Shown: piece by piece, positions 7,740-27,955 of the stretch
How positions within the stretch are numbered: position 1 is the stretch's first letter
How the letters are laid out: each line of letters starts with the position of its first letter
Assembly (NCBI GenBank): GCA_037445715.1
Contig: JBBIJZ010000003.1
Span: 19,935-83,934, forward strand
Reading direction: 5' to 3'
Source: Verrucomicrobiales bacterium
GTDB lineage: Bacteria > Verrucomicrobiota > Verrucomicrobiia > Limisphaerales > J093
Length of the DNA: 64,000 nt
Translations under genes and position numbers: made by a program
The notes under the pieces: model-generated
Database searches by the model: none
The model's input: the letters and a program-made list of their open reading frames with translations, nothing else
What the model was told of the DNA's origin: nothing

Positions 7740-7750
7740 CCGGTGTAATC

Positions 7751-7835
7751 CCACAAACCGTAGTGGGCCGTGGCGCAGTGCCTCCCGCCTGCTCAACTTC
7801 GGTCTTTGGGTTCAATCGCGCAGCGGGGTCGTCTC
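7751..7835 (+). repeat. Copy A of a ~50-90 bp intergenic repeat family (core 7765..7813)
   Basis: The core gggccgtggcgcagtgcctcccgcctgctcaacttcggtctttgggttc matches the reverse complement of 13880..13928 at 45 of 49 positions (manual alignment). Weaker similarity continues on both sides. Confidence 0.75.
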
Positions 7836-8115
7836 ACGTTCCCGCCGTTTGCTTTGGCCCGGACACAACCCCCCATAGTGGCGCGGGCGACCCCGCCTGC
7901 CGTGAGGCATGCGGTCGCGATGCCAAAAAAGCTGAAAAAAAGATTGACACCGCGCGCCAAGATGATGACAGTCCACCCAGTCCTGCGCTGGAGGACTTAA
8001 GACGAGGTGAAGGATAAGACATTGCAACATTCAGACTGGGACTGCTGCGCCAAGGGGTGTGGCAGACTGTGGCTGCGCCCACGGCACACCGGCTTAGGAA
8101 CAGCGCAGGGCTTGT

Positions 8116-9420
8116 GTGCTCCCCCTGCGTGGCTCAACCCTTCCCGGCTTGGACATCCGTCCTTCGTCCCTGGTCGTTGATCTTGGTCGCCGTCTTCGTT
8201 CTGCGCTCCGCGTTCCGCATTCCGCTTTCCTGTTCATCGAGTTATTGATGGCGCTGGCACTCTGCGGTGTTTTGGCTCGCTCGCAGGTGGCCACTGCCGA
8301 GCCTACACCAAGCCCGGCTCAGAGGTATGCTGTGCCGGAGCCGTCGCTGGTGCGCGATCTTCTGCTGACAGAGGCGCGGGGCATTGTTGAGGGACCCGAG
8401 TCCGCTGCTCAGGCAAACCCTGTCCAGCAGCCTTGGACGAGAGACGGCAGCCAGCCGTTCCGCGACGCGATCGCTTCACACGTCCCGGTCAAGCGGCTGG
8501 TGTTTCGATATTCACGCAATCACATAACCGACCTTACCAATCCCAGGAAGCCGACGTACCCGCCGGGATTTGACGAGTTCGAAGGCGCGGTCCAACCTTC
8601 AGGGTACTACTTGTTGAAGCTACCTCACTCTAGCGCAAGGGTAGACAATCACAATCCCGTTGGAGAAACTCTGGCAAGCGGTGCTTCCTCCTGTTTCTGG
8701 TGGCAACTGAATGATAATTACGATTCCCTTCGCGTTGCCACAAGGAACAATGCCAAATGGCCTATGGATCCCGTAGCCGTGGTTTGTACGATGGACTTCG
8801 ACAAACTCGCCGAAGTCGCCCACTGCGGTATGCTACACATCGCAGACGCCGATATTCGTTGGTTGGATCCACGCCGCTTCCGCGCTGAATCCCAACGTTT
8901 CGGCATACTTGAAGGCCAGATTGCTTCCTTTGATGACACCGGTCGCCCAACGCGCCTTTGGTACCACTCGCCGACCAATTCTGTCATTGGCTCGTTCGAC
9001 ATCTGTTACAGTTACAAGGATGCGACGCTGTTCCCCCCATCCACTATGATTGTCCGTCGCACCGGCCCCGGCCAGAATCGGCCTCCCTACACCAACATCA
9101 TACTTTCCTACGACCCTGGACTTCAAATGGAGGCGACAAACGGATTTGTGCCATCGCAGTTCCGGCGCAAGAGCCAGCCGCTCGCTACTTTCATCGTATA
9201 TTCTAATTCCGTTCGCTACAAAGTGCTGCCTAACGGACAGTGGTATCCCGCTCCGGAGTCGGAGTGGGAGACGCCGGGATTGGCTCCTCGCTCGGCTACC
9301 ATGGCCGCGAGTTCCTTTACCTTCGCGCTTGCGGTTCTCGGCTTCGCTGCCACGGCTCTGGCCACGTGGCAGCGCGCCAAACAACCTAGGCCAGTAGAAA
9401 AGGAAAGACATAGAATATGA
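8116..9420 (+). CDS. Large pilin-like protein (prepilin-type N-terminal cleavage/methylation-like motif) with C-terminal TM anchor; function unknown
   Basis: 434-aa ORF starting at GTG 8116. Residues 34-50, PHSAFLFIELLMALALC, fit the class III signal motif (A|F-x-x-x-E5-LL). They parallel NSHAFTLLELL in the pseudopilin at 11893..12825. The C-terminus has a hydrophobic helix plus basic tail, FTFALAVLGFAATALATWQRAKQPR. The first ATG (8248) would cut the motif, so an upstream non-ATG start (GTG 8116 or TTG 8149) is likely. Confidence 0.6.
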   Translation: MLPLRGSTLPGLDIRPSSLVVDLGRRLRSALRVPHSAFLFIELLMALALCGVLARSQVATAEPTPSPAQRYAVPEPSLVRDLLLTEARGIVEGPESAAQANPVQQPWTRDGSQPFRDAIASHVPVKRLVFRYSRNHITDLTNPRKPTYPPGFDEFEGAVQPSGYYLLKLPHSSARVDNHNPVGETLASGASSCFWWQLNDNYDSLRVATRNNAKWPMDPVAVVCTMDFDKLAEVAHCGMLHIADADIRWLDPRRFRAESQRFGILEGQIASFDDTGRPTRLWYHSPTNSVIGSFDICYSYKDATLFPPSTMIVRRTGPGQNRPPYTNIILSYDPGLQMEATNGFVPSQFRRKSQPLATFIVYSNSVRYKVLPNGQWYPAPESEWETPGLAPRSATMAASSFTFALAVLGFAATALATWQRAKQPRPVEKERHRI

Positions 9421-9722
9421 AGTTCGTTCAACGTTCGGCACTCTTCTCCGGGGTGCTCCTGATTGTCGTGACAGCCAACGCCATCTGCTGGTTGAACAGT
9501 GTGACGGAGTGCCCGAGCGCCATCAGGGATGGTGGCAATCCATGCGTTCTCGATCCATGGCCACAGCCTTGGTACCCGATGGCGCGAAGTGCCGCCACCG
9601 GTTTCGCCACGCTCGCGGGCGATGGACTGAAGCACTGTCAATATAAGTGCACGGGACCAAACGGGACGTACACAACAAGATACTTCGAAGGTGTGAACGC
9701 TACCGGATCCAGTTGCCCGTAG
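9417..9722 (+). CDS. Small secreted cysteine-rich protein (about 79-aa mature, 6 Cys), unknown family
   Basis: 101 aa. Its start overlaps the upstream stop (ATGA at 9417..9420). Signal peptide MKFVQRSALFSGVLLIVVTANA. Six Cys occur in the mature part, which also has NGT and NAT tripeptides. Confidence 0.55.
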   Translation: MKFVQRSALFSGVLLIVVTANAICWLNSVTECPSAIRDGGNPCVLDPWPQPWYPMARSAATGFATLAGDGLKHCQYKCTGPNGTYTTRYFEGVNATGSSCP

Positions 9723-9740
9723 CCGCGCCCAATGACTCGC

Positions 9741-9768
9741 TCCGGGGGCGGTTGTTGCCACCCCCGGA
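9741..9768 (+). promoter_or_regulatory. GC-rich hairpin just downstream of the small Cys-rich gene (possible intra-operon attenuator or processing site)
   Basis: tccggggg(9741-9748) cggttgttgcca cccccgga(9761-9768). This gives a perfect 8-bp stem and a 12-nt loop. No U-tract follows. Confidence 0.3.
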
Positions 9769-9832
9769 AGCCTGCTGAGAAACGTCGTATGCCTGATGAC
9801 CGAATGGAGGGGGACGACCTTAGTCTCCGAGA

Positions 9833-10327
9833 ATGAAGCACTTCATCCTCATGGCAGATTCCCATTCCCCCATACCGGCCGAAGGTCCCACCCCGGCATC
9901 TTCCCGCCTGCACCTGGTTTTGGTCGCTGTGTTGTTGCTTCTTCTTGGCGGAGCCAAGCTGGCTGGCCTCTGGGAAGCACGGGCCTCGGAAGACGCAGCA
10001 ACACTCGATCCGGTGCTGGGCATTTCGTCCGTACGCATCAGCTTACTCATGGGTTTGCTTGAGCTGATTTGTGGCATTATGATCCTCGCGCTCTGGTCCA
10101 ACCTGACTGCAGCTTACACATGCACCATGCTTGGAATGGCGTTTATCAGCTACCGTTGGCTAATAGCGACGTTCAGCACGACAAGCGAACCCTGCGGCTG
10201 TCTGGGAGTGGCGCGTAGCTGGCTGGGCGCGCTGAGGCAATACGAAGACAATGTTCTGGCGGCAACGGCGGTGTTCATATTTGTGGTCGGTGTCTGTGCC
10301 TGGCTGCGTGAGAAGCGCGTTTTATGA
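9833..10327 (+). CDS. MauE/DoxX-like four-TM membrane protein with CGCxG motif
   Basis: 164 aa with four predicted TM helices. The motif EPCGCLG (Cys codons at 10193..10201) lies before the last helix, matching the DCGCFG signature I associate with the MauE family. The stop overlaps the next gene's start. Confidence 0.55.
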   Translation: MKHFILMADSHSPIPAEGPTPASSRLHLVLVAVLLLLLGGAKLAGLWEARASEDAATLDPVLGISSVRISLLMGLLELICGIMILALWSNLTAAYTCTMLGMAFISYRWLIATFSTTSEPCGCLGVARSWLGALRQYEDNVLAATAVFIFVVGVCAWLREKRVL

Positions 10328-11883
10328 GCATGAGACGTCATTGGAATAGTACGATCCCGTACTACCTGATAGTACCGGTGTTGTTTCTCTTGCTGGTAAG
10401 CAGGTGTCCGATTGAGAGCGCGCTGTCAATCGGAGGCGACGATGGTTTTGAGCTCGCGAAGTCACTACTCGTGGCCAGAGCGCCCGAAGCCGCGCGTGAC
10501 ATGTACAACGACCAGCCATGGTTGCACACACTGGTCATTGGTCAGTTGTTTCGATGGTTCGGACCCCACGCGAGTATTCCCCGCCTTGTGTCCGTCATCT
10601 CCGCCCTTGCCCTAGTTGTCGCCCTTGGCTACCTGGCGAGCCGCACCGGCGGGGGCCTCGAGGTGATTCTGGTGGGGCTGTTCTTTCTCTCCAGTGAATA
10701 CATCACGACGGCGGCGCTGGCAGCCATGGTCGAACTGCCTGCCGTGGCTTGGGCGATGGTCGCTTCGACCATTTTGATCGCCAGCGAGCGCAACCACTGG
10801 GGATTCCGGGGTATTCTGCTGTCTGGAATCATGCTTGGGCTGGCCTTGAGCCTTAAACTAACGGCCGTAATTGTGATTCCGGCAACGGCGGTGTACCTTC
10901 TGGCGCAGCGCAGGTTGCGGGCTGCTTTTTGGACATGTAGTGCCTGGGTAGCTATCGCTGCGGCCTGTTTCACCGGTGTAGCCTTGTTGAGCCCGAGGTG
11001 CTCGTTTGATGAGCTGTGGGGTAGCCATAGCTTGGCCCGCCAGGCTCTGTCGCCCGAGCAGATGAAAACCTGGGCTTTTCATGGTTACCATTTTGTAACA
11101 AACCCTGCCCTGACTTTTGCGGCCGGACTTGGCCTGATTCGCGCGGTTCGGAGGCGGGAAAAAGAACTGATTTATGCCACCGCGCTCCTCGGTACCGCGG
11201 TTGTCATTGCGATTTTTCAGCGCCCCTGGTGGGGGTACTACGTGATCCATTTTTACACTCCCATGTCCCTTCTCGCTGCAGCCGCAGCCGGCGACGTTAT
11301 GTACGCGGTGTTCTCCCGGACAAAGGCTTTCACTGCGGTGTTTGCCAGATCAGCCGCGCATGGCTTCGGGATTGAGCAGCCTGCGTCCCGCTCTGCCATG
11401 ACATTTGCCTGTGCTGTAGCAGGGCTGGCTATGATCATCGGTTTGTGGAGTGGATTTACATTACCGAGATGGCTGTACGAAATCGGGAGCATCGAACAAG
11501 TTCGCCGGGCTGAGAACAGCGTTGTGTGCAGAGCAATGCGGCAGTACGTCACCGAGGTGAAATGGTGTTATACACCAGAAAGGGAATACGCCTTTCACGC
11601 TGGTCTTTTGGTGCCACCCGAGTTGATTGTCCTGTCAATCAAGCGTTTCCTGACGGGGTCACTCACAAACAAGAAAGTTCTTGAAGTCCTTAAACGCTAC
11701 GAGCCCGAACTGCTGCTGTTGAGTAAGCGGGACCTGAAGTTGCATGGAGAGTTGTCACAGTGGGTTCGTCTGAATTATACGTTGGTTGAGCAAGAAGACA
11801 TTGTCGAACTGTGGGTTCGCCGTGAAATCGCCAGGAATCCCCTCGGCGCTAGTGACCCCCGGCTTGTCGCCTGGAAGCTTTGA
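10324..11883 (+). CDS. GT-C fold membrane glycosyltransferase (ArnT/PMT, GT39/GT83-like)
   Basis: 519 aa. It is polytopic (about 10 or more hydrophobic helices). The first loop has an acidic motif, SIGGDDGFELAKSLL, followed by NDQPWLHTLVIGQLFRWFG, which resembles the DE/PPL region of PMT_2/ArnT enzymes. A C-terminal soluble domain follows. Start overlaps the upstream stop (ATGA at 10324). Confidence 0.6.
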   Translation: MSMRRHWNSTIPYYLIVPVLFLLLVSRCPIESALSIGGDDGFELAKSLLVARAPEAARDMYNDQPWLHTLVIGQLFRWFGPHASIPRLVSVISALALVVALGYLASRTGGGLEVILVGLFFLSSEYITTAALAAMVELPAVAWAMVASTILIASERNHWGFRGILLSGIMLGLALSLKLTAVIVIPATAVYLLAQRRLRAAFWTCSAWVAIAAACFTGVALLSPRCSFDELWGSHSLARQALSPEQMKTWAFHGYHFVTNPALTFAAGLGLIRAVRRREKELIYATALLGTAVVIAIFQRPWWGYYVIHFYTPMSLLAAAAAGDVMYAVFSRTKAFTAVFARSAAHGFGIEQPASRSAMTFACAVAGLAMIIGLWSGFTLPRWLYEIGSIEQVRRAENSVVCRAMRQYVTEVKWCYTPEREYAFHAGLLVPPELIVLSIKRFLTGSLTNKKVLEVLKRYEPELLLLSKRDLKLHGELSQWVRLNYTLVEQEDIVELWVRREIARNPLGASDPRLVAWKL

Positions 11884-11892
11884 AGGTGTTGC

Positions 11893-12825
11893 ATGAGAGT
11901 GCGAATCACGGTCAATATAGCTGGCAGCCTCGTGCCCGGTCACACGATTTACAGAACATATGTTTCGAACGATCGATGCCAAGGCATGTGTAAACGGGAT
12001 CAATCATGTCTGTCGTCGGAGAGGATCGTGCCCCCTGTCTTCATCAATTCACACGCGTTCACGCTCCTCGAGTTGCTGGCGGCTGTAACCATCCTGGCGA
12101 TACTTGCAAGCTTAACCATGGCCGCGGTCCATGGAGCGAAGAAACGCGCCACGAACGCCAACTGCATTTCGAATGTTCGACAACTTGCTGTTGCACTGCA
12201 AACGTTTGTCACGACCACCGGACAGTATCCGTTGGACTTCAATCCCGGGCGCATATTCCCTGAGCATGGAGTAAGCTGGGAAGGTTCTCTGTTCAGCAAC
12301 GACGAACAGTTGGCGCTCATGGACCGGAAGACACCAGGGGGGTCTTACAAGGGCGTCCTGCGATGTCCGGCTCAACGCCAGCCGGCTGATTGGGTCCCTG
12401 TTCCTGGGCGCGGTGTTTATATGTATTACGGCTATAATCAGGATGGCCTTATTGGCCCACAGCCTGGAAACAGCCTGGGTTTGGGCAAGCACATCGAGCC
12501 GAGCGGTGCCGTTCGGCCAGTGTCGGAGAACGAAGTGGTGAAGCCGGTGGAGATGGTGGCCATCGGTGACGGTTTCCGGGGTTGGGGCGGAAGGATAGAT
12601 GATGGCACTCAAATGCTCGGGAGAGACGCGAGAATGCTTTCCCTTGTTTCCTTCGGTGGGGACAGGCGGGCGCGCGCGCGGCACCAAGAAACGGCTACGA
12701 TTGCGTTTTGTGATGGGCATGTGGCGCGGGTCAAACTCGATTTCCTGTTCAAGGATACAGCGGATGAGGCGCTGCGCGTGTGGAATCGCGACAATCAACC
12801 TCACCGTGACCGCCTGACGCCCTGA
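11893..12825 (+). CDS. Prepilin-type N-terminal cleavage/methylation domain protein with H-X9-DG C-terminal motif (pseudopilin-like)
   Basis: N-terminal motif NSHAFTLLELLAAVTILAILASL, then CISNVRQLAVALQ. The C-terminal RHQETATIAFCDGHV is an exact H-X9-DG. ATG 11893 is preceded by GAAGGTG, which looks like an SD sequence. An alternative ATG at 11986 would give a shorter leader. Confidence 0.85.
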   Translation: MRVRITVNIAGSLVPGHTIYRTYVSNDRCQGMCKRDQSCLSSERIVPPVFINSHAFTLLELLAAVTILAILASLTMAAVHGAKKRATNANCISNVRQLAVALQTFVTTTGQYPLDFNPGRIFPEHGVSWEGSLFSNDEQLALMDRKTPGGSYKGVLRCPAQRQPADWVPVPGRGVYMYYGYNQDGLIGPQPGNSLGLGKHIEPSGAVRPVSENEVVKPVEMVAIGDGFRGWGGRIDDGTQMLGRDARMLSLVSFGGDRRARARHQETATIAFCDGHVARVKLDFLFKDTADEALRVWNRDNQPHRDRLTP

Positions 12826-12873
12826 TCATGAATTGCTTCGGCAACTTTATCTGTAGCGCGGCGACCAGCGTCT

Positions 12874-13815
12874 TTGTTAGACACGTCGGGTAACGTTGTT
12901 CATGGTCCGTTCCGATGCCTCGCCAAGGCGTGGACTCTGTGTCATGCGGCTGCTTCGCCCAATGGTTGCCAGGAGCAGCAGGATCCCGTGAAGGTCAATG
13001 TAACTCTGCCGGTATACAATGAGGAAGCGCAGCTTGGGACGAACGTCCGCCGCGTTATCGAGTTCTTGCGGACGCAGGGGTGGGATTCGGAACTCGTGAT
13101 CGCGGACAACGGCTCGAGGGATGGGACACTGGAGATCGCCAGGGGCTTGGAGCAAAGGGCGTCGAGCGAAGCGCCCAGTACACTGATGTCAGATGAAAGA
13201 TCGGAGACAGAAGGACGGGGGCAGAAGCCAGATGATCGTGGAGGGAGAACCGAAAGCGGTGAGCCAAGGAATAAGGGCGAAGAGCAAAGAGGGAAGACCA
13301 ACGTCCGAGTCGTTCACCTCGATCTCGCCGGGCGGGGTCGGGCGCTGAAGACGGCGTGGCTGGCCAGCGAGGCGGAGGTGCTGAGCTACATGGACGTGGA
13401 TCTCTCGACCGAGCTCACTCATCTGCCTGCATTGATCGAAGCAATCAGCCGCGGACAATGCGATGTGGCGATTGGCTCGCGCTTGTTACCCGAATCGAAG
13501 ACCACTCGCGGCTGGAAACGCGAACTGCTCTCGCGCGGGTACAACTGGCTTTTGCGCCTGGCGTTGGGGTTGCGGGTTCACGATGCCCAATGCGGCTTCA
13601 AAGCCCTCTCGCGCGCGGCCGCCCGCGCCTTGTTGCCGCAGGTGCGGGACATTGGTTTTTTCTTCGACACGGAGTTGCTGGTGCTCGCGCAGCGGCAGGG
13701 CTACTGCATAGCCGAGCTGCCCGTACGCTGGGTGGATGATCCGGATTCGCGTGTCCGGTTGGCGCGCACGATTTGGGAAGACCTGAAGGGCGTCTGGCGG
13801 CTGCGCCGCCGGTGA
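12874..13815 (+). CDS. GT2 family glycosyltransferase, polyprenyl-phosphate sugar synthase type (Dpm1/GtrB/ArnC-like)
   Basis: Motifs: VTLPVYNEE, VIADNGSRDGT, SYMDVDLS (DxD), AIGSRL, RVHDAQCGFKAL. The track start is TTG 12874. GTG 12988 (VKVNVTLPVYNEE), preceded by AGGAG, is a more likely start. A charged insertion of about 48 aa (residues ~96-143) interrupts the fold. Confidence 0.85.
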   Translation: MLDTSGNVVHGPFRCLAKAWTLCHAAASPNGCQEQQDPVKVNVTLPVYNEEAQLGTNVRRVIEFLRTQGWDSELVIADNGSRDGTLEIARGLEQRASSEAPSTLMSDERSETEGRGQKPDDRGGRTESGEPRNKGEEQRGKTNVRVVHLDLAGRGRALKTAWLASEAEVLSYMDVDLSTELTHLPALIEAISRGQCDVAIGSRLLPESKTTRGWKRELLSRGYNWLLRLALGLRVHDAQCGFKALSRAAARALLPQVRDIGFFFDTELLVLAQRQGYCIAELPVRWVDDPDSRVRLARTIWEDLKGVWRLRRR

Positions 13816-13857
13816 GGGATCGTGGCGGAGTGCTGGGGCATGCCGAATGCCAGATTC

Positions 13858-13945
13858 CAGAAGCTCTGGACCCCGGACCGAACCCGAAGACCGAAGTTGA
13901 GCAGGCGGGACGCACTGCGCTACGGGCCAACTTCGGCTTTCGGAC
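13858..13945 (-). repeat. Copy B of the intergenic repeat family, inverted relative to copy A (core 13880..13928)
   Basis: The reverse complement of 13880..13928 matches 7765..7813 at 45 of 49 positions. Its arms ccgaagaccgaagtt and aacttcggctttcgg are themselves near-inverted repeats. Confidence 0.75.
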
Positions 13946-14569
13946 TGGACCGGTTGTTTCCGTGACCGCTGGCCCGACGGCCGGGCTTGGTGGTTTGTGA
14001 ATTATTTCACCAGGGAAAAAATGCTGGTCAATCCAGCCATAGTACATGCCATGCGCAGCAAGAGCGGCCTGATGGCCGCCGGCCAGACCGGCCTTGAGCC
14101 CAAGCCATGATCGACAAACTGTTGAAAAACAAGTGTTTGGGAAAACAAACCAGCAGAACTGGCTCTCTTTCAAACGCCTTGGGGCGGCCCTCCACGACCC
14201 GGAATGGGCGTTACCGGGCCTTTGGATTGGCGTATGGCGGTCTGGCGGCGCGTTCCAGGGATTTTGTTGTCAGGTCCAGCGTCACGATGGAGCGCAGTAA
14301 AAGCGTTGCGGCGTGTTACCGCGCTTTTGTAGCGCGGTACAAAGGTCTTGTTGCGCCGCACCAAACTTCTGGATGACGATCCAGTGGCCTTGGAAGGCCC
14401 AGGCGCATCCGGATTTTGCGTTGTCCTTGACAGACCGGTTTGGGTTGAATATGCAATCACACGCCACCAGGACAGACGAGGGCCAGGACGGGCGTCTGGG
14501 TCGCTTGCCTGCCGCGGGACGGGAAAACAACACAGTCGGCCAACCATCAACCTCCGGGAAGGGAACATC

Positions 14570-14935
14570 ATGCCAGTCGCACCCAAAGTCATCGAAGAGA
14601 GCACGAATCGCATCCTCCGGGCGTGGGAAACGCTCGCGGCGGACCAGACGTTCGCCGGGATGTCGCTTGAACAATTCAAGGAGAAGGTCAAGCCGTCCTT
14701 TGACGCGCGCGCGGCGATCGCGAGTCTGGAGCAGGAGATGACGGCGGCGATCAACCGGCGCGACGAAGCGGACCGGGAGACGCAGCGGCTGGCCGGCTTG
14801 GTGGTGAACTCGGTTAAGGGCGACCTGGCGTTTGGCGAGGACAGCGACCTGTACGAGGCGATGGGCTACGTGCGCAAGAGCGAGCGCAAGACCGGGCTCA
14901 CGCGCAGGAAGCCCGCGGCCGGGGCCCAACCGTAG
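14570..14935 (+). CDS. Hypothetical protein (121 aa, predicted helical or coiled-coil)
   Basis: Trimmed from track ORF 14348..14935 to ATG 14570 (MPVAPKVIEESTNRILRAW). I recognise no motif. The coding call rests on ORF length, non-repetitive composition and a GGGAAGGGAA purine tract upstream. Confidence 0.45.
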   Translation: MPVAPKVIEESTNRILRAWETLAADQTFAGMSLEQFKEKVKPSFDARAAIASLEQEMTAAINRRDEADRETQRLAGLVVNSVKGDLAFGEDSDLYEAMGYVRKSERKTGLTRRKPAAGAQP

Positions 14936-15264
14936 CCAGGGCAGTTCTGGCGGGGTGACGCGACAGCCCGTCGGGCGGGAAGCCCGGCGCTACAGCAGGC
15001 AGGGAAGCCTGCTGCTACCGGCGGGGCCTCCTGCCGCCCCGCCTGTTTGAAGGATTTCTGAGGAGCGAGCGCCGCGAGCCCCAAACTCTCCCTCCGGCCA
15101 AGACGCGGCGTGCCCTGCCGTGCCTGGAGATGGCCTCGCTCAGGCAGGGCACCGCTGTGTCGGCGTCGGTTGGGGGCCGGCCTCTGGCTCAGCAGCCGGG
15201 TCTGTCGCCCCTCGGCGAGGGGCGACCCACCTTGTCGAGCCGCAGGCTCGACGCTACACCAACC

Positions 15265-15315
15265 GCAATGGCAAAAGCCGAAATCCGAAGTCAAAGAAAC
15301 GCGGCAGGCGGGAAA
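15265..15315 (-). repeat. Degenerate third copy (C) of the same repeat family
   Basis: aagccgaaatccgaagt...gcaggcggga shares the CCGAAxxCCGAAGT arm (13 of 16) and the GCAGGCGGGA block (10 of 10) with copy B. The remainder has diverged. Confidence 0.4.
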
Positions 15316-15441
15316 GCGAAATGACCGCCCAAAACCGCCGTGGTTGACGGCTGTTGGGCAGCGCGTACCGTGCTTGCGCAACCGCGGACGCCCCGGGCAT
15401 CTGCCGCGTCCGCGGGCCGTGTCCGGTTGGGAGACTGAGTT

Positions 15442-20614: not shown

Positions 20615-22654
20615 TCAGGTGACCCGCGCCCCCGGCACGCCGGGCAGGGCGTGGTCGGCGCCGTTGATCGGTTCTCCGGCGGCGGCGGCGATCAGCTTGC
20701 GGTACGTCGCCAGGGCCAGCAGCGGCCAACTGTTCCGGTACATGTCGTATTTGAGGTAGTACACGCGCGGGAAGCCGGTGCCGGTGGTTTCGTCCTCGGT
20801 CCAGGAGCCGTCGGGGTTTTGCGTGCGGGTGAGGAATTCGATGCCGCGGAGCAGGCTGGGGTTGTTGGGGTCGCCGAAGGTGCACAAGCCCATGACGGCC
20901 CAGGCGGTCTGGGAGGCGGTGCTGGGGCCGCGGCCCTTGAAAACGGGGTCCTCGTAGGTGTCGCAGCGTTCGCCCCAGCCGCCGTCCTCGTGCTGGACAC
21001 TTTCCAGCCAGGCGCCGGCCTTGCGGAGCCAGGGCTGGTTCATGTCCACGCCCAGGGTGTGCAAGCCGCGCAGGACCTGCCAGGTGCCGTAGATGTAGTT
21101 CACGCCCCAGCGCCCGTACCAGGAACCGTCCGGCTCCTGCTGGCGGCGGAGGTACTCGATGGCCCGGGCGACCTGCGGGTGATCGAGCGGGTATTTCTCG
21201 TGGCCGAGGACCTCGAGGATGCGCGCGGTGATGTCCGCGCACTCCGGGTCGAGCATGGCGTTGTGGTCGGCGAAGGGGACTTTCTCGAGGATGTTGTTGG
21301 TGCAGTCCTTGTCGAACGCGGCCCAGCCGCCGTCGCGGCACTGGAAGGTGAGCATCCAGTTCAAGCCGCGCCGGTAGGCGGCATCGCGCGCGGCGGGATT
21401 GTCGGTGGGCGTCAACCGCAGGGCCAGCAGGACCATGGCGGTGTCGTCCACGTCCGGGTTCCACTTGTTCTCGAACTCGAAGACCCACCCGCTGGGTTCG
21501 ACGGGGGCGGGGTTCTTGTGCTGCCAGTCGCCGCGGAAGCGGATTTCCTTGGTCAGGAGCCAGGCGGTGGCCTTTTGGAGTGCGGGGTGGTCGGCGGGCA
21601 CGCCGGATTCACGCAGGGCGATGGCGGCGATGGCGGTGTCCCAGACCGGGGAGAGACAGGGCTCCATCCAGACGTGCTCGGCGTTCTGGTGTTCGAGCTT
21701 CTTGAGATTGGCCTCGCACTGGAGCACCAGCGGGTGGTCGGCGGGGTAACCGAGGGCCTTGAGGGCGATGAGGGAGTTGAGGATGGCCGGGAAGATGGCG
21801 GCCAGGCCGTCGGACCCCTCGAAGCGTTCGATCATCCACTGCTCGGCGCGTTTGAGGGCGCGGCGGCGGAAGGGGTGGATGCCGGCGCGGGCCCAGAGTT
21901 CGGCGAACTTGTGGAGTTTGTCCAGGGCGAGGAAGAAGTTGCGCCAGGTGAACACGTGCGGCCAGGGGTCGCGGGGCAGGCGCAGGTCGCGTTCATGGTA
22001 GCCCTCCGGGAAAAGCTCGTTGATGTGGCAACCCACCGGTCGGGTGGGGCGGAAGTGGTTGATGATGGCCAGGGGCACGAGCATGGCGCGGCTCCAGTTG
22101 CTCATGTCCCAGAAGTTCACCCGGAACCATTTGCCGATGAGCAGGACCTCGCAGGGAATGGTGGGGACGTATTTCCAGGGGTAGAGGCCCAGCAGGGCGA
22201 GGTAGAGCTTGGAGAAGGTGTTCATGCGCGGCACCCCGCCCAGGCTCAGGGCCACGGCGCGGGCGCGCAACATGCGGGGGTCGGTGACCGGGACGCCGGC
22301 CAGTTTGAGGGCCAGGTAGGCCTTGATGGTGGCGTTCACCTCGGCCGGGCCGCCGTGGTAGATGTTCCAGCCGCCGCCGGGCAGTTGTTGGGACAGGATG
22401 TAGTTGGCGGCCTTGCGCTGCCATTCCGGGTCCACGCGGCCGTCCCAGTGCCGGAAGGCGATCATGTCGGACATGATGGTGGTGTCCACGATGAGTTCGC
22501 CGATCCAGTAGCCGTCCGGTTTCTGGAGCCCCAGCAGGTGTTGTTGGGCGCGCGCGATGGCGCGTTCGACGGCCGGCACCAGTTGGCGGGCGGCAGTCCA
22601 GGCGGTGGCGACCTGCCCGGCGGTCGTTTGGGTGGCGAGCTTGCTGGTCAGCAT
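20615..22654 (-). CDS. shc: squalene-hopene cyclase
   Basis: 679 aa. Contains the DxDDTA motif (WNPDVDDTAMVLLAL). Several QW repeats: QQEPDGSWYGRWG, QHEDGGWGE, QNPDGSWTE. Confidence 0.95.
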   Translation of the reverse strand: MLTSKLATQTTAGQVATAWTAARQLVPAVERAIARAQQHLLGLQKPDGYWIGELIVDTTIMSDMIAFRHWDGRVDPEWQRKAANYILSQQLPGGGWNIYHGGPAEVNATIKAYLALKLAGVPVTDPRMLRARAVALSLGGVPRMNTFSKLYLALLGLYPWKYVPTIPCEVLLIGKWFRVNFWDMSNWSRAMLVPLAIINHFRPTRPVGCHINELFPEGYHERDLRLPRDPWPHVFTWRNFFLALDKLHKFAELWARAGIHPFRRRALKRAEQWMIERFEGSDGLAAIFPAILNSLIALKALGYPADHPLVLQCEANLKKLEHQNAEHVWMEPCLSPVWDTAIAAIALRESGVPADHPALQKATAWLLTKEIRFRGDWQHKNPAPVEPSGWVFEFENKWNPDVDDTAMVLLALRLTPTDNPAARDAAYRRGLNWMLTFQCRDGGWAAFDKDCTNNILEKVPFADHNAMLDPECADITARILEVLGHEKYPLDHPQVARAIEYLRRQQEPDGSWYGRWGVNYIYGTWQVLRGLHTLGVDMNQPWLRKAGAWLESVQHEDGGWGERCDTYEDPVFKGRGPSTASQTAWAVMGLCTFGDPNNPSLLRGIEFLTRTQNPDGSWTEDETTGTGFPRVYYLKYDMYRNSWPLLALATYRKLIAAAAGEPINGADHALPGVPGARVT

Positions 22655-27034: not shown

Positions 27035-27955
<921 letters not shown>

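Follow-up and report, generated by a model that had tools for sequence, protein, structure and literature searches.

Does a pseudopilin gene that lies between two glycosyltransferase genes encode the protein to which these enzymes attach their sugar? This question is raised by a 64,000-nt stretch of DNA from a Verrucomicrobiales bacterium (assembly GCA_037445715.1, contig JBBIJZ010000003.1, positions 19,935-83,934 of the forward strand), which was analysed as a whole and is called the window below. Three open reading frames (ORFs) follow one another on its plus strand, for a GT-C-fold glycosyltransferase (10324-11883), a prepilin-type pseudopilin (11893-12825) and a glycosyltransferase of family GT2 (12874-13815). 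A first-pass annotation had noted this same-strand cluster and had read it as a dedicated glycosylation system for the pilin-like protein. The cluster was confirmed, strand and coordinates included, and the interpretation as a whole was partly supported. More explicitly, the three genes occupy the 3' half of an operon that comprises six (8116-13815), and comparison with related loci indicates that the invariant partners of the GT-C gene are the three genes upstream of it. These are likewise on the plus strand and encode a C-terminally anchored extracytoplasmic protein ('unk', 8116-9420), a small secreted protein with six conserved Cys residues ('smC', 9417-9722) and a MauE-like (DsbB-type) protein with four transmembrane (TM) helices (9833-10327). 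The reading that we favour, with a confidence that stays just short of even, is that the operon is a periplasmic protein-maturation cassette, which would combine lipid-linked-sugar glycosylation with disulfide formation on co-encoded envelope proteins, with unk and/or smC as the likeliest acceptors and the pseudopilin as an optional one.

The assignment of the 519-residue product of 10324-11883 to the GT-C superfamily was derived from its modelled fold and from Pfam. The match to the Pfam family PMT_2 (PF13231) is marginal (27.7 bits against a gathering score of 26.1) and is accompanied by a weak match to ALG3; among the close GT-C relatives, 12 of 22 show the PMT_2 match at E<=0.01, and others match ALG3 or GT87. 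Comparison with the sequences of PDB chains gave chance matches only, both with the single sequence and with a 22-sequence profile, and membership therefore rests on fold and Pfam. An AlphaFold2 (AF2) model made with six homologues is of moderate quality (predicted local distance difference test, pLDDT, 70; predicted template-modelling score, pTM, 0.67) and shows around 11 TM helices and a C-terminal alpha/beta domain of 120 amino acids (residues ~400-519), placed periplasmic, where the positive-inside rule yields an N-in topology. The structure search, designated beforehand as the refuting test, put this model inside the superfamily: the best 23 Foldseek matches in the PDB were all GT-C enzymes, headed by ArnT (5f15; E 1.9e-7, TM-score 0.54) and including STT3/AglB, ALG12/9/3, EmbB and Pmt4, followed by PimE and AftB, and the matches from outside the superfamily, which were unrelated transporters, had a probability below 0.2. 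Neither the MIR domain nor the PMT_4TMC module, the hallmarks of GT39 (Pmt), was detected in the enzyme by Pfam, where PMT_2 alone was matched, and the same annotation contained no tetratricopeptide repeat (TPR) match. Sequence homology to ArnT (GT83) was not detected either, and no arnA/B/D/E/F-like genes occur among the neighbours. As far as the model allows, the enzyme is thus a predicted GT-C glycosyltransferase that belongs to a separate, ArnT/PMT_2-like family.

The family is large. A word-indexed search gave just 5 relatives, and on that basis the enzyme could have been taken for an orphan; this was abandoned when an exhaustive search with the family profile revealed 2347 representatives at E<1e-3; 726 of these reach E<1e-30, and most are of full length. 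Periplasmic loop 1 carries the motifs GGDDxFEL and NDQPW, and across 60 relatives E43 and Q64 are invariant and D39 nearly so. We infer, solely from the fold and from the adjacent DPMS-like GT2, that the enzyme uses a polyprenyl-phosphate-linked sugar as its donor.

The GT2 (12874-13815; probable start GTG 12988) had been annotated as an enzyme that makes a polyprenyl-phosphate-linked sugar, and the best-match analysis agrees with this. It matches PF00535 at 2e-19, its best solved relative is the DPMS of Pyrococcus (5mlz, 1.5e-11), followed by ArnC, and among the NCBIfam models it comes nearest to AglJ, dolichyl-P hexose transferase, ArnC and PpgS, without reaching the equivalog cutoff of any of them. 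The protein consists of the catalytic domain only, lacks a TM segment and carries the DxD motif in the form YMDVDLST. Together these matches support a polyprenyl-phosphate-sugar synthase of the Dpm1/ALG5/GtrB/ArnC type, as judged from similarity. Orthologues in L007, L005, L049 and L053 (the related loci introduced below are referred to by L numbers) are 53-62% identical, with the elements DNGS, YMDVDLST, AQCGFK and FFDTELL invariant. In L007 and L049-52 the orthologue adjoins a GtrA_DPMS_TM gene, and in L005, L053-55, L026, L033 and L044 a GT2 adjoins the GT-C gene. The window protein has a charged, low-complexity insert of ~45 amino acids after DNGS (residues ~57-105, counted from GTG 12988); at the same place a different insert is found in L053 (5154-6155), and none in L007, L005 and L049.

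The gene context was compared over 40 related loci from GTDB genomes (22-sequence GT-C set) and 17 metagenome loci, which were scanned with hidden Markov models (HMMs) derived from the window together with the loci nearest to it. Nearly all are from Verrucomicrobiota, with up to three paralogues per genome. The order unk-smC-MauE-GT-C was found in 21 non-redundant loci. In the GT-C tree most of these belong to a single clade, outside which L036 and L038 are placed. What follows 3' of the GT-C gene is variable: a GtrA gene, a DPMS-like GT2, a second GT-C of PIG-V, PIG-M or GT87 type, a prepilin gene, or just an integrase or insertion sequence (IS). The comparison points to unk, smC, MauE and GT-C as a constant core, and to GT2, GtrA, second GT-C and pseudopilin as variable accessories. 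The core genes have also diverged together: in a mirror-tree analysis the GT-C distances correlate with those of unk (r=0.79) and those of MauE (r=0.81; Mantel p<0.0005). Whole modules have been duplicated within one genome, as in Limisphaera sp. 4302-co, which holds L013, L023 and L029; Limisphaera isolates, to which L024 belongs as well, have up to three modules. A further, incomplete gene set stands in front of the module in the marine-type loci L005 (41-2990) and L049 (296-5764). It consists of a GT-C fragment or MauE together with a PIG-V-like GT-C, GtrA and a truncated copy of GT2, and resembles a tandem duplication or a repeat due to assembly.

The first protein of the core, unk, has the anchoring of a type-I membrane protein, with a signal peptide, a beta-rich extracytoplasmic domain of ~330 amino acids and, at the C-terminus, a TM helix followed by a basic tail. 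Its start is probably ATG 8248, giving 390 amino acids instead of the 434 of the ORF. No Pfam, NCBIfam or PDB match was obtained, also when a 15-sequence profile was used, and an AF2 model made with 9 sequences was unusable (pLDDT 39.5). The word-indexed search, which had also missed most of the GT-C relatives, returned no homologues of unk; yet homologues lie directly upstream, in the same order, in at least 20 loci, and their alignment shows Q107, W143, Y245, Y247 and S310-N311 to be invariant. Two other identities for unk were considered and given up. The N-terminus (..SAFLFIELL..) had suggested a second prepilin, which was rejected as the homologues carry ordinary signal peptides, and an arrangement like that of methylamine dehydrogenase (MADH), with a heavy subunit, a Cys-rich light subunit and MauE, was dropped because neither unk nor smC has a match in Pfam or NCBIfam.

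Between unk and the MauE-like gene lies smC, not only in the window but among others also in L005-L010, L012, L019, L046, L049 and L053. Its product has a signal peptide and, in a 15-sequence alignment, six conserved Cys residues in the arrangement C..CP..C..CxYxC..C. The first-pass annotation had named the Cys-rich protein as an alternative acceptor; its place in the invariant core keeps it in consideration, as a candidate.

The MauE-like protein matches PF07291 with 29.6 bits (gathering threshold 27), has four TM helices and carries the sequence C-G-C-L-G in the periplasmic loop between TM3 and TM4. In the alignment C-[PG]-C-L-[GA] is invariant, as is a Glu in TM2, and a Lys in TM1 is nearly invariant. 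It has been reported that MauE can replace DsbB in E. coli, that its active site maps to the periplasmic CXC motif and that the conserved Lys and Glu are, as shown or proposed, catalytic features (bioRxiv 10.64898/2026.03.05.709764). Given the PF07291 score and these conserved features, the protein is predicted to be a DsbB-type oxidase. The tie with the transferase is a close one. In the window the stop and start of the two genes overlap by 4 bp, and five family representatives (P0016, P0033, P0073, P0117 and P0142) are natural MauE::GT-C fusions, in which a MauE-like 4-TM domain (residues ~14-140) precedes the GT-C part. This domain is detected by the custom HMM and missed by the Pfam MauE model.

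The middle gene had been described as an H-X9-DG prepilin-type protein, and the prepilin part of this description stands: the N_methyl model PF07963 (24.5; gathering threshold 21.2) and TIGR02532 (23.6; cutoff 16.3) both score above threshold. As to the H-X9-DG part, the literal motif is present (H-QETATIAFC-DG, mature position 208), while the scores for the corresponding family models fall just short, which leaves the protein a candidate member of this family (DUF1559, PF07596, 23.1 against 23.3; TIGR04294, H-X9-DG, 14.8 against 19). The likely start is ATG 11986, possibly 11893. At the cleavage site (HA/FTLLE) the Glu at +5 is present and the residue at -1 is Ala, not Gly; Ala at this position occurs in 7 of the 18 prepilin-type ORFs of these loci (the window, 12052-12057, L021, L023, L029, L036, L040 and L044). 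No other prepilin-type gene was found within the 64-kb window.

Among the related loci, prepilin genes do tend to occur near the clusters. With a strict motif and at least 100 amino acids to the stop codon as the definition, the 125 kb proximal to clusters contain 11 prepilin ORFs and the 423 kb of distal flanks 9, an enrichment of 4.1-fold (Poisson p ~1e-4) over a background of ~0.02 per kb in the flanks. The co-occurrence is not general, since a prepilin gene is nearby at 8 of the 21 core-carrying loci (11 of 49 loci overall) and L007, L009, L013, L019, L024 and L029, where 10-kb flanks were covered as far as the contig allowed, have none at a distance of up to 1.5 kb from the cluster. Its position varies as well. 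The window does show the bracketing of the pilin gene by GT-C and GT2 that the first-pass annotation had stressed, but it is alone in this among the loci compared. Elsewhere the prepilin gene comes right after GT-C, on the same strand (L006, L036, L038), after GT2 (L044, L049) or directly upstream of unk (L053-55), and the orders MauE-GT-C-pilin (L036) and GT-C-GT2-pilin (L044) occur without unk or smC. The closest relative of the window pseudopilin is the pilin beside the GT-C gene in L006; for the rest, the linked pilins can barely be aligned with one another beyond the N-terminal helix and are not orthologous. The association thus appears real but facultative, which fits a recurrent accessory client better than a defining partner. 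In L006, the locus with the closest related module, a GspE/PilB-type ATPase gene and three more pseudopilin genes are present ~4 kb downstream of the module (8694-14429), in an operon that resembles those of type II secretion systems or type IV pili; no such operon was seen in the window, of which about the first 30 kb was covered by the Pfam annotation.

All six genes are located on a segment that carries the marks of acquisition. Their GC content at third codon positions (GC3) is 0.62-0.72, that of the pseudopilin being 0.62, as compared to 0.90-0.92 for the flanking panC, nadB and asmA-like genes, and a second 4-bp stop/start overlap joins unk to smC. The block of ~7740-15440 (7.7 kb) lies between nadB and the asmA-like gene. 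The closest relatives of NadB are from Verrucomicrobiae and Limisphaerales (75-81% identity), and in two such relatives (L068 and L071) the site is empty, with nadB directly preceding the asmA-like and M20 peptidase genes: in L068 218 bp (10657-10875) separate nadB from the start of the asmA match, and the region concerned in L071 is 11584-12424. Since nadB and asmA are joined directly in these relatives, the 7.7 kb between them in the window represents an insertion. In addition, the six low-GC genes lie between the arms of an inverted repeat of 50 nt each (7764-7813, at the left edge of the island, and 13880-13929, 65 bp past the GT2 stop), which are 92% complementary. The repeat is present in two copies only in the window and was recovered in 0 of 100 shuffles. 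Taken together, the codon usage and the empty site indicate that the operon occupies a horizontally acquired low-GC3 island, and the insertion and the repeat that frames the six genes argue that the pseudopilin came in together with the transferases. The arms may mark the termini of a mobilisable element or be scars left by recombination; no transposase is present between them, and neither the other loci nor the GTDB representative genomes yielded the repeat, its 20-mer giving chance matches only in the latter. In L001 (9212-11243), L007 (15473-16561), L009 (11806-12939) and L018 (12884-13837) the related module adjoins IS transposases (rve, ISL3) or tyrosine integrases, which is consistent with a mobile cassette.

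The inserted segment extends beyond the right arm of the repeat and there contains one more ORF (14348-14935, plus strand, GC3 0.77), for which neither Pfam nor NCBIfam gave a match above threshold and none of the fetched loci a relative; a second, separate insertion may be its source. The intergenic regions likewise had no relatives in the fetched loci, a scan of the window with Rfam returned no matches, and a scan for promoters and terminators stayed at background level. Further away, the flanking host DNA encodes a squalene-hopene cyclase (20615-22654, minus strand) and a XerC/D-type tyrosine recombinase (27035-27955, plus strand), which look ordinary and unrelated to the island.

How the products might work together can be outlined as follows. 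As judged from its family, the soluble GT2 would charge polyprenyl phosphate with a hexose at the cytoplasmic face of the membrane. The lipid-linked sugar would then be flipped, a step that a GtrA-like gene may serve in related loci. In the periplasm the GT-C, acting as a unit with the MauE-like oxidase (translationally coupled in the window and fused elsewhere), would move the sugar onto a co-encoded envelope protein, the disulfides of which would be formed during the transfer. The likeliest acceptors would be the module's own co-diverging unk and/or smC, with the pseudopilin as a recurrent but facultative extra client or as an alternative acceptor. Several lines of evidence lead to this reading: the fold and motifs of the GT-C, the conserved gene order, the co-divergence and the MauE::GT-C fusions; the location of smC, with its six conserved Cys residues, beside a MauE-like CXC protein; the similarity of the GT2 to DPMS, ArnC and AglJ, and its adjacency to GtrA or GT-C in related loci; and the shared GC3, the 4-bp overlaps, the insertion site and the enrichment of prepilin genes. 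The nature of the donor sugar, the notion that the acceptor is a protein and the choice among the proteins are all points that we infer.

Three other explanations have to be weighed against this one, two of which concern the pilin directly. That GT-C and GT2 form a system dedicated to the adjacent H-X9-DG pseudopilin, which would be the principal acceptor, has a precedent in TfpW of Pseudomonas aeruginosa, a pilin arabinosyltransferase encoded beside pilA (bioRxiv 10.1101/2020.04.19.049825); it is a GT-C whose periplasmic loop 1 contains a DDX motif. The embedding of the pseudopilin gene between the two transferase genes, with a codon usage common to the island, is in line with such a system, as are the enrichment of prepilin genes near the clusters, their recurrent placement close to GT-C, GT2 or the module, and the two loci (L036 and L044) that keep a pilin without unk or smC. 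Against it stand the six loci without a nearby prepilin gene, the unfixed position and non-orthology of the linked pilins, and the lack of a TPR or other pilin-binding domain in the GT-C. Moreover, the GT-C has a much closer linkage to unk, smC and MauE, with which it also co-diverges, and it is they, outside the three-gene region on which the first-pass annotation had based its proposal, that are the invariant partners; the idea of the pilin as the dedicated partner was not supported as it stood, and we regard it as quite improbable. The opposite view, in which the pilin gene is a passenger without functional tie, present by chance or by hitch-hiking, takes into account that DUF1559-type genes are numerous and mobile, that their background density is not negligible, that occurrence is facultative, position variable and sequence highly divergent, and that the modules adjoin integrases or IS elements and are clearly mobile. 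It leaves aside that the enrichment is significant and reappears on several distinct branches of the GT-C tree, and that the same strand and the short gaps within the operon suggest co-transcription. We consider a mere passenger somewhat doubtful; this view is compatible with the protein-maturation cassette as well as with the non-protein acceptor that is discussed next.

The main rival of the protein-maturation cassette is that GT-C and GT2 decorate lipid A, the core of lipopolysaccharide (LPS), O-antigen or another envelope glycan, and that the upstream proteins are accessory subunits or unrelated cargo. Precedents for the decoration of glycans or lipids are provided by ArnC/ArnT, GtrABC, LgmAB and CsbB/YfhO, and most of the characterised bacterial three-component systems, composed of GT2, GtrA and GT-C, act on such substrates. 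ArnT, which is the closest solved fold and the best structural match of the GT-C, is a lipid A transferase, the GT2 is ArnC-like, and the further GT-Cs (PIG-V, PIG-M, GT87) and GtrA genes in related loci are typical of glycan-building clusters. Other observations also weigh against our preference for protein acceptors: the PMT_2 match exceeds its threshold by only 1.6 bits and profile searches of PDB sequences were empty; a GtrA-like gene or ORF is not present in the 64-kb window; in many related loci the GT2 is not beside the GT-C; and unk, for which there is neither a usable model nor a recognisable domain, could be a subunit and not a substrate. What a non-protein acceptor leaves unexplained is why each paralogous GT-C within one genome keeps its own co-diverging set of unk, smC and MauE, and why an oxidase would be fused to the transferase. 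In addition, no arn, lgm or O-antigen genes were found in the window. We therefore hold a non-protein acceptor to be unlikely, while the cassette for the maturation of co-encoded proteins is retained as the tentative first choice.

Should the protein-maturation reading be right, a sizeable, hitherto uncharacterised and largely Verrucomicrobial GT-C family (~700 clusters at 50% identity) would have a fixed set of partners, and the MauE-like protein would be the first oxidase of the MauE/DsbB type with a glycosyltransferase as its dedicated, and in some cases fused, partner. It would also imply that envelope-modification cassettes travel between genomes as islands. In practical terms, the compact mobile operon of 6 kb could be expressed heterologously to probe the glycosylation of pseudopilin-like or secreted proteins. 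A bolder version, which we think improbable although worth stating, is that of an undescribed machine in which the GT-C is physically coupled to the MauE oxidase, mostly as a neighbour and at times by fusion, and which carries out glycosylation and disulfide formation jointly on envelope clients, H-X9-DG pseudopilins included, as a prokaryotic counterpart of the oligosaccharyltransferases (OSTs) that contain an oxidoreductase. Such a machine would also provide a first biochemical handle on the DUF1559 pseudopilins.

Compared to what is known, the system is a variation on the logic of GT2, GtrA and GT-C, and what is new are the GT-C family, the dedicated MauE partner, the two secreted proteins, the recurrent pseudopilin and the mobile island. 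With the three-component systems (GtrABC, ArnC/ArnE-F/ArnT, CsbB/GtcA/YfhO and Ppm1/Pmt) it shares a DPMS/ArnC-like GT2 beside a GT-C with an acidic motif in loop 1 and, in orthologous loci, the GtrA_DPMS_TM genes; it differs from them by the lack of a GtrA gene in the window, by a GT-C family that cannot be linked by sequence to any solved GT-C, and by conserved partners that are a MauE-type oxidase and two secreted proteins. The eukaryotic OST contains thiol-oxidoreductase subunits (Ost3/Ost6, TUSC3/MagT1) that handle Cys-containing substrates. The resemblance lies in the coupling of the catalytic subunit, a GT-C (STT3 ranks high among the structural matches), to a thiol-disulfide oxidoreductase, here the adjacent or fused MauE-like CXC protein. 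The analogy is functional only, since a DsbB-like, quinone-type oxidase with four TM helices takes the place of a thioredoxin-fold subunit, and the sugar is probably donated as a monosaccharide linked to polyprenyl phosphate instead of an oligosaccharide on pyrophosphate. TfpW and the GT-C of the window have in common around 11 TM helices, the N-in orientation, a DD motif in loop 1, a periplasmic C-terminal domain and a neighbouring gene for a type IV pilin-like protein. However, TfpW has a large periplasmic TPR domain, whereas the C-terminal domain of the window enzyme measures 120 amino acids and is devoid of TPRs; the neighbour in the window is a DUF1559/H-X9-DG-like pseudopilin to which the link is facultative, not a major pilin of type IVa pili; and genes for the biosynthesis of D-arabinofuranose (D-Araf) are not present. 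Finally, the MauE-like protein corresponds to the MauE characterised in the preprint (bioRxiv 10.64898/2026.03.05.709764) in its PF07291 score, its four TM helices, the periplasmic CXC between TM3 and TM4, the Lys in TM1 and the Glu in TM2. It deviates in having a Leu after the CXC where a Phe is usual, and in being dedicated to a glycosyltransferase, with which it is sometimes fused, whereas in the preprint MauE figures as a protein for disulfide-bond formation in general.

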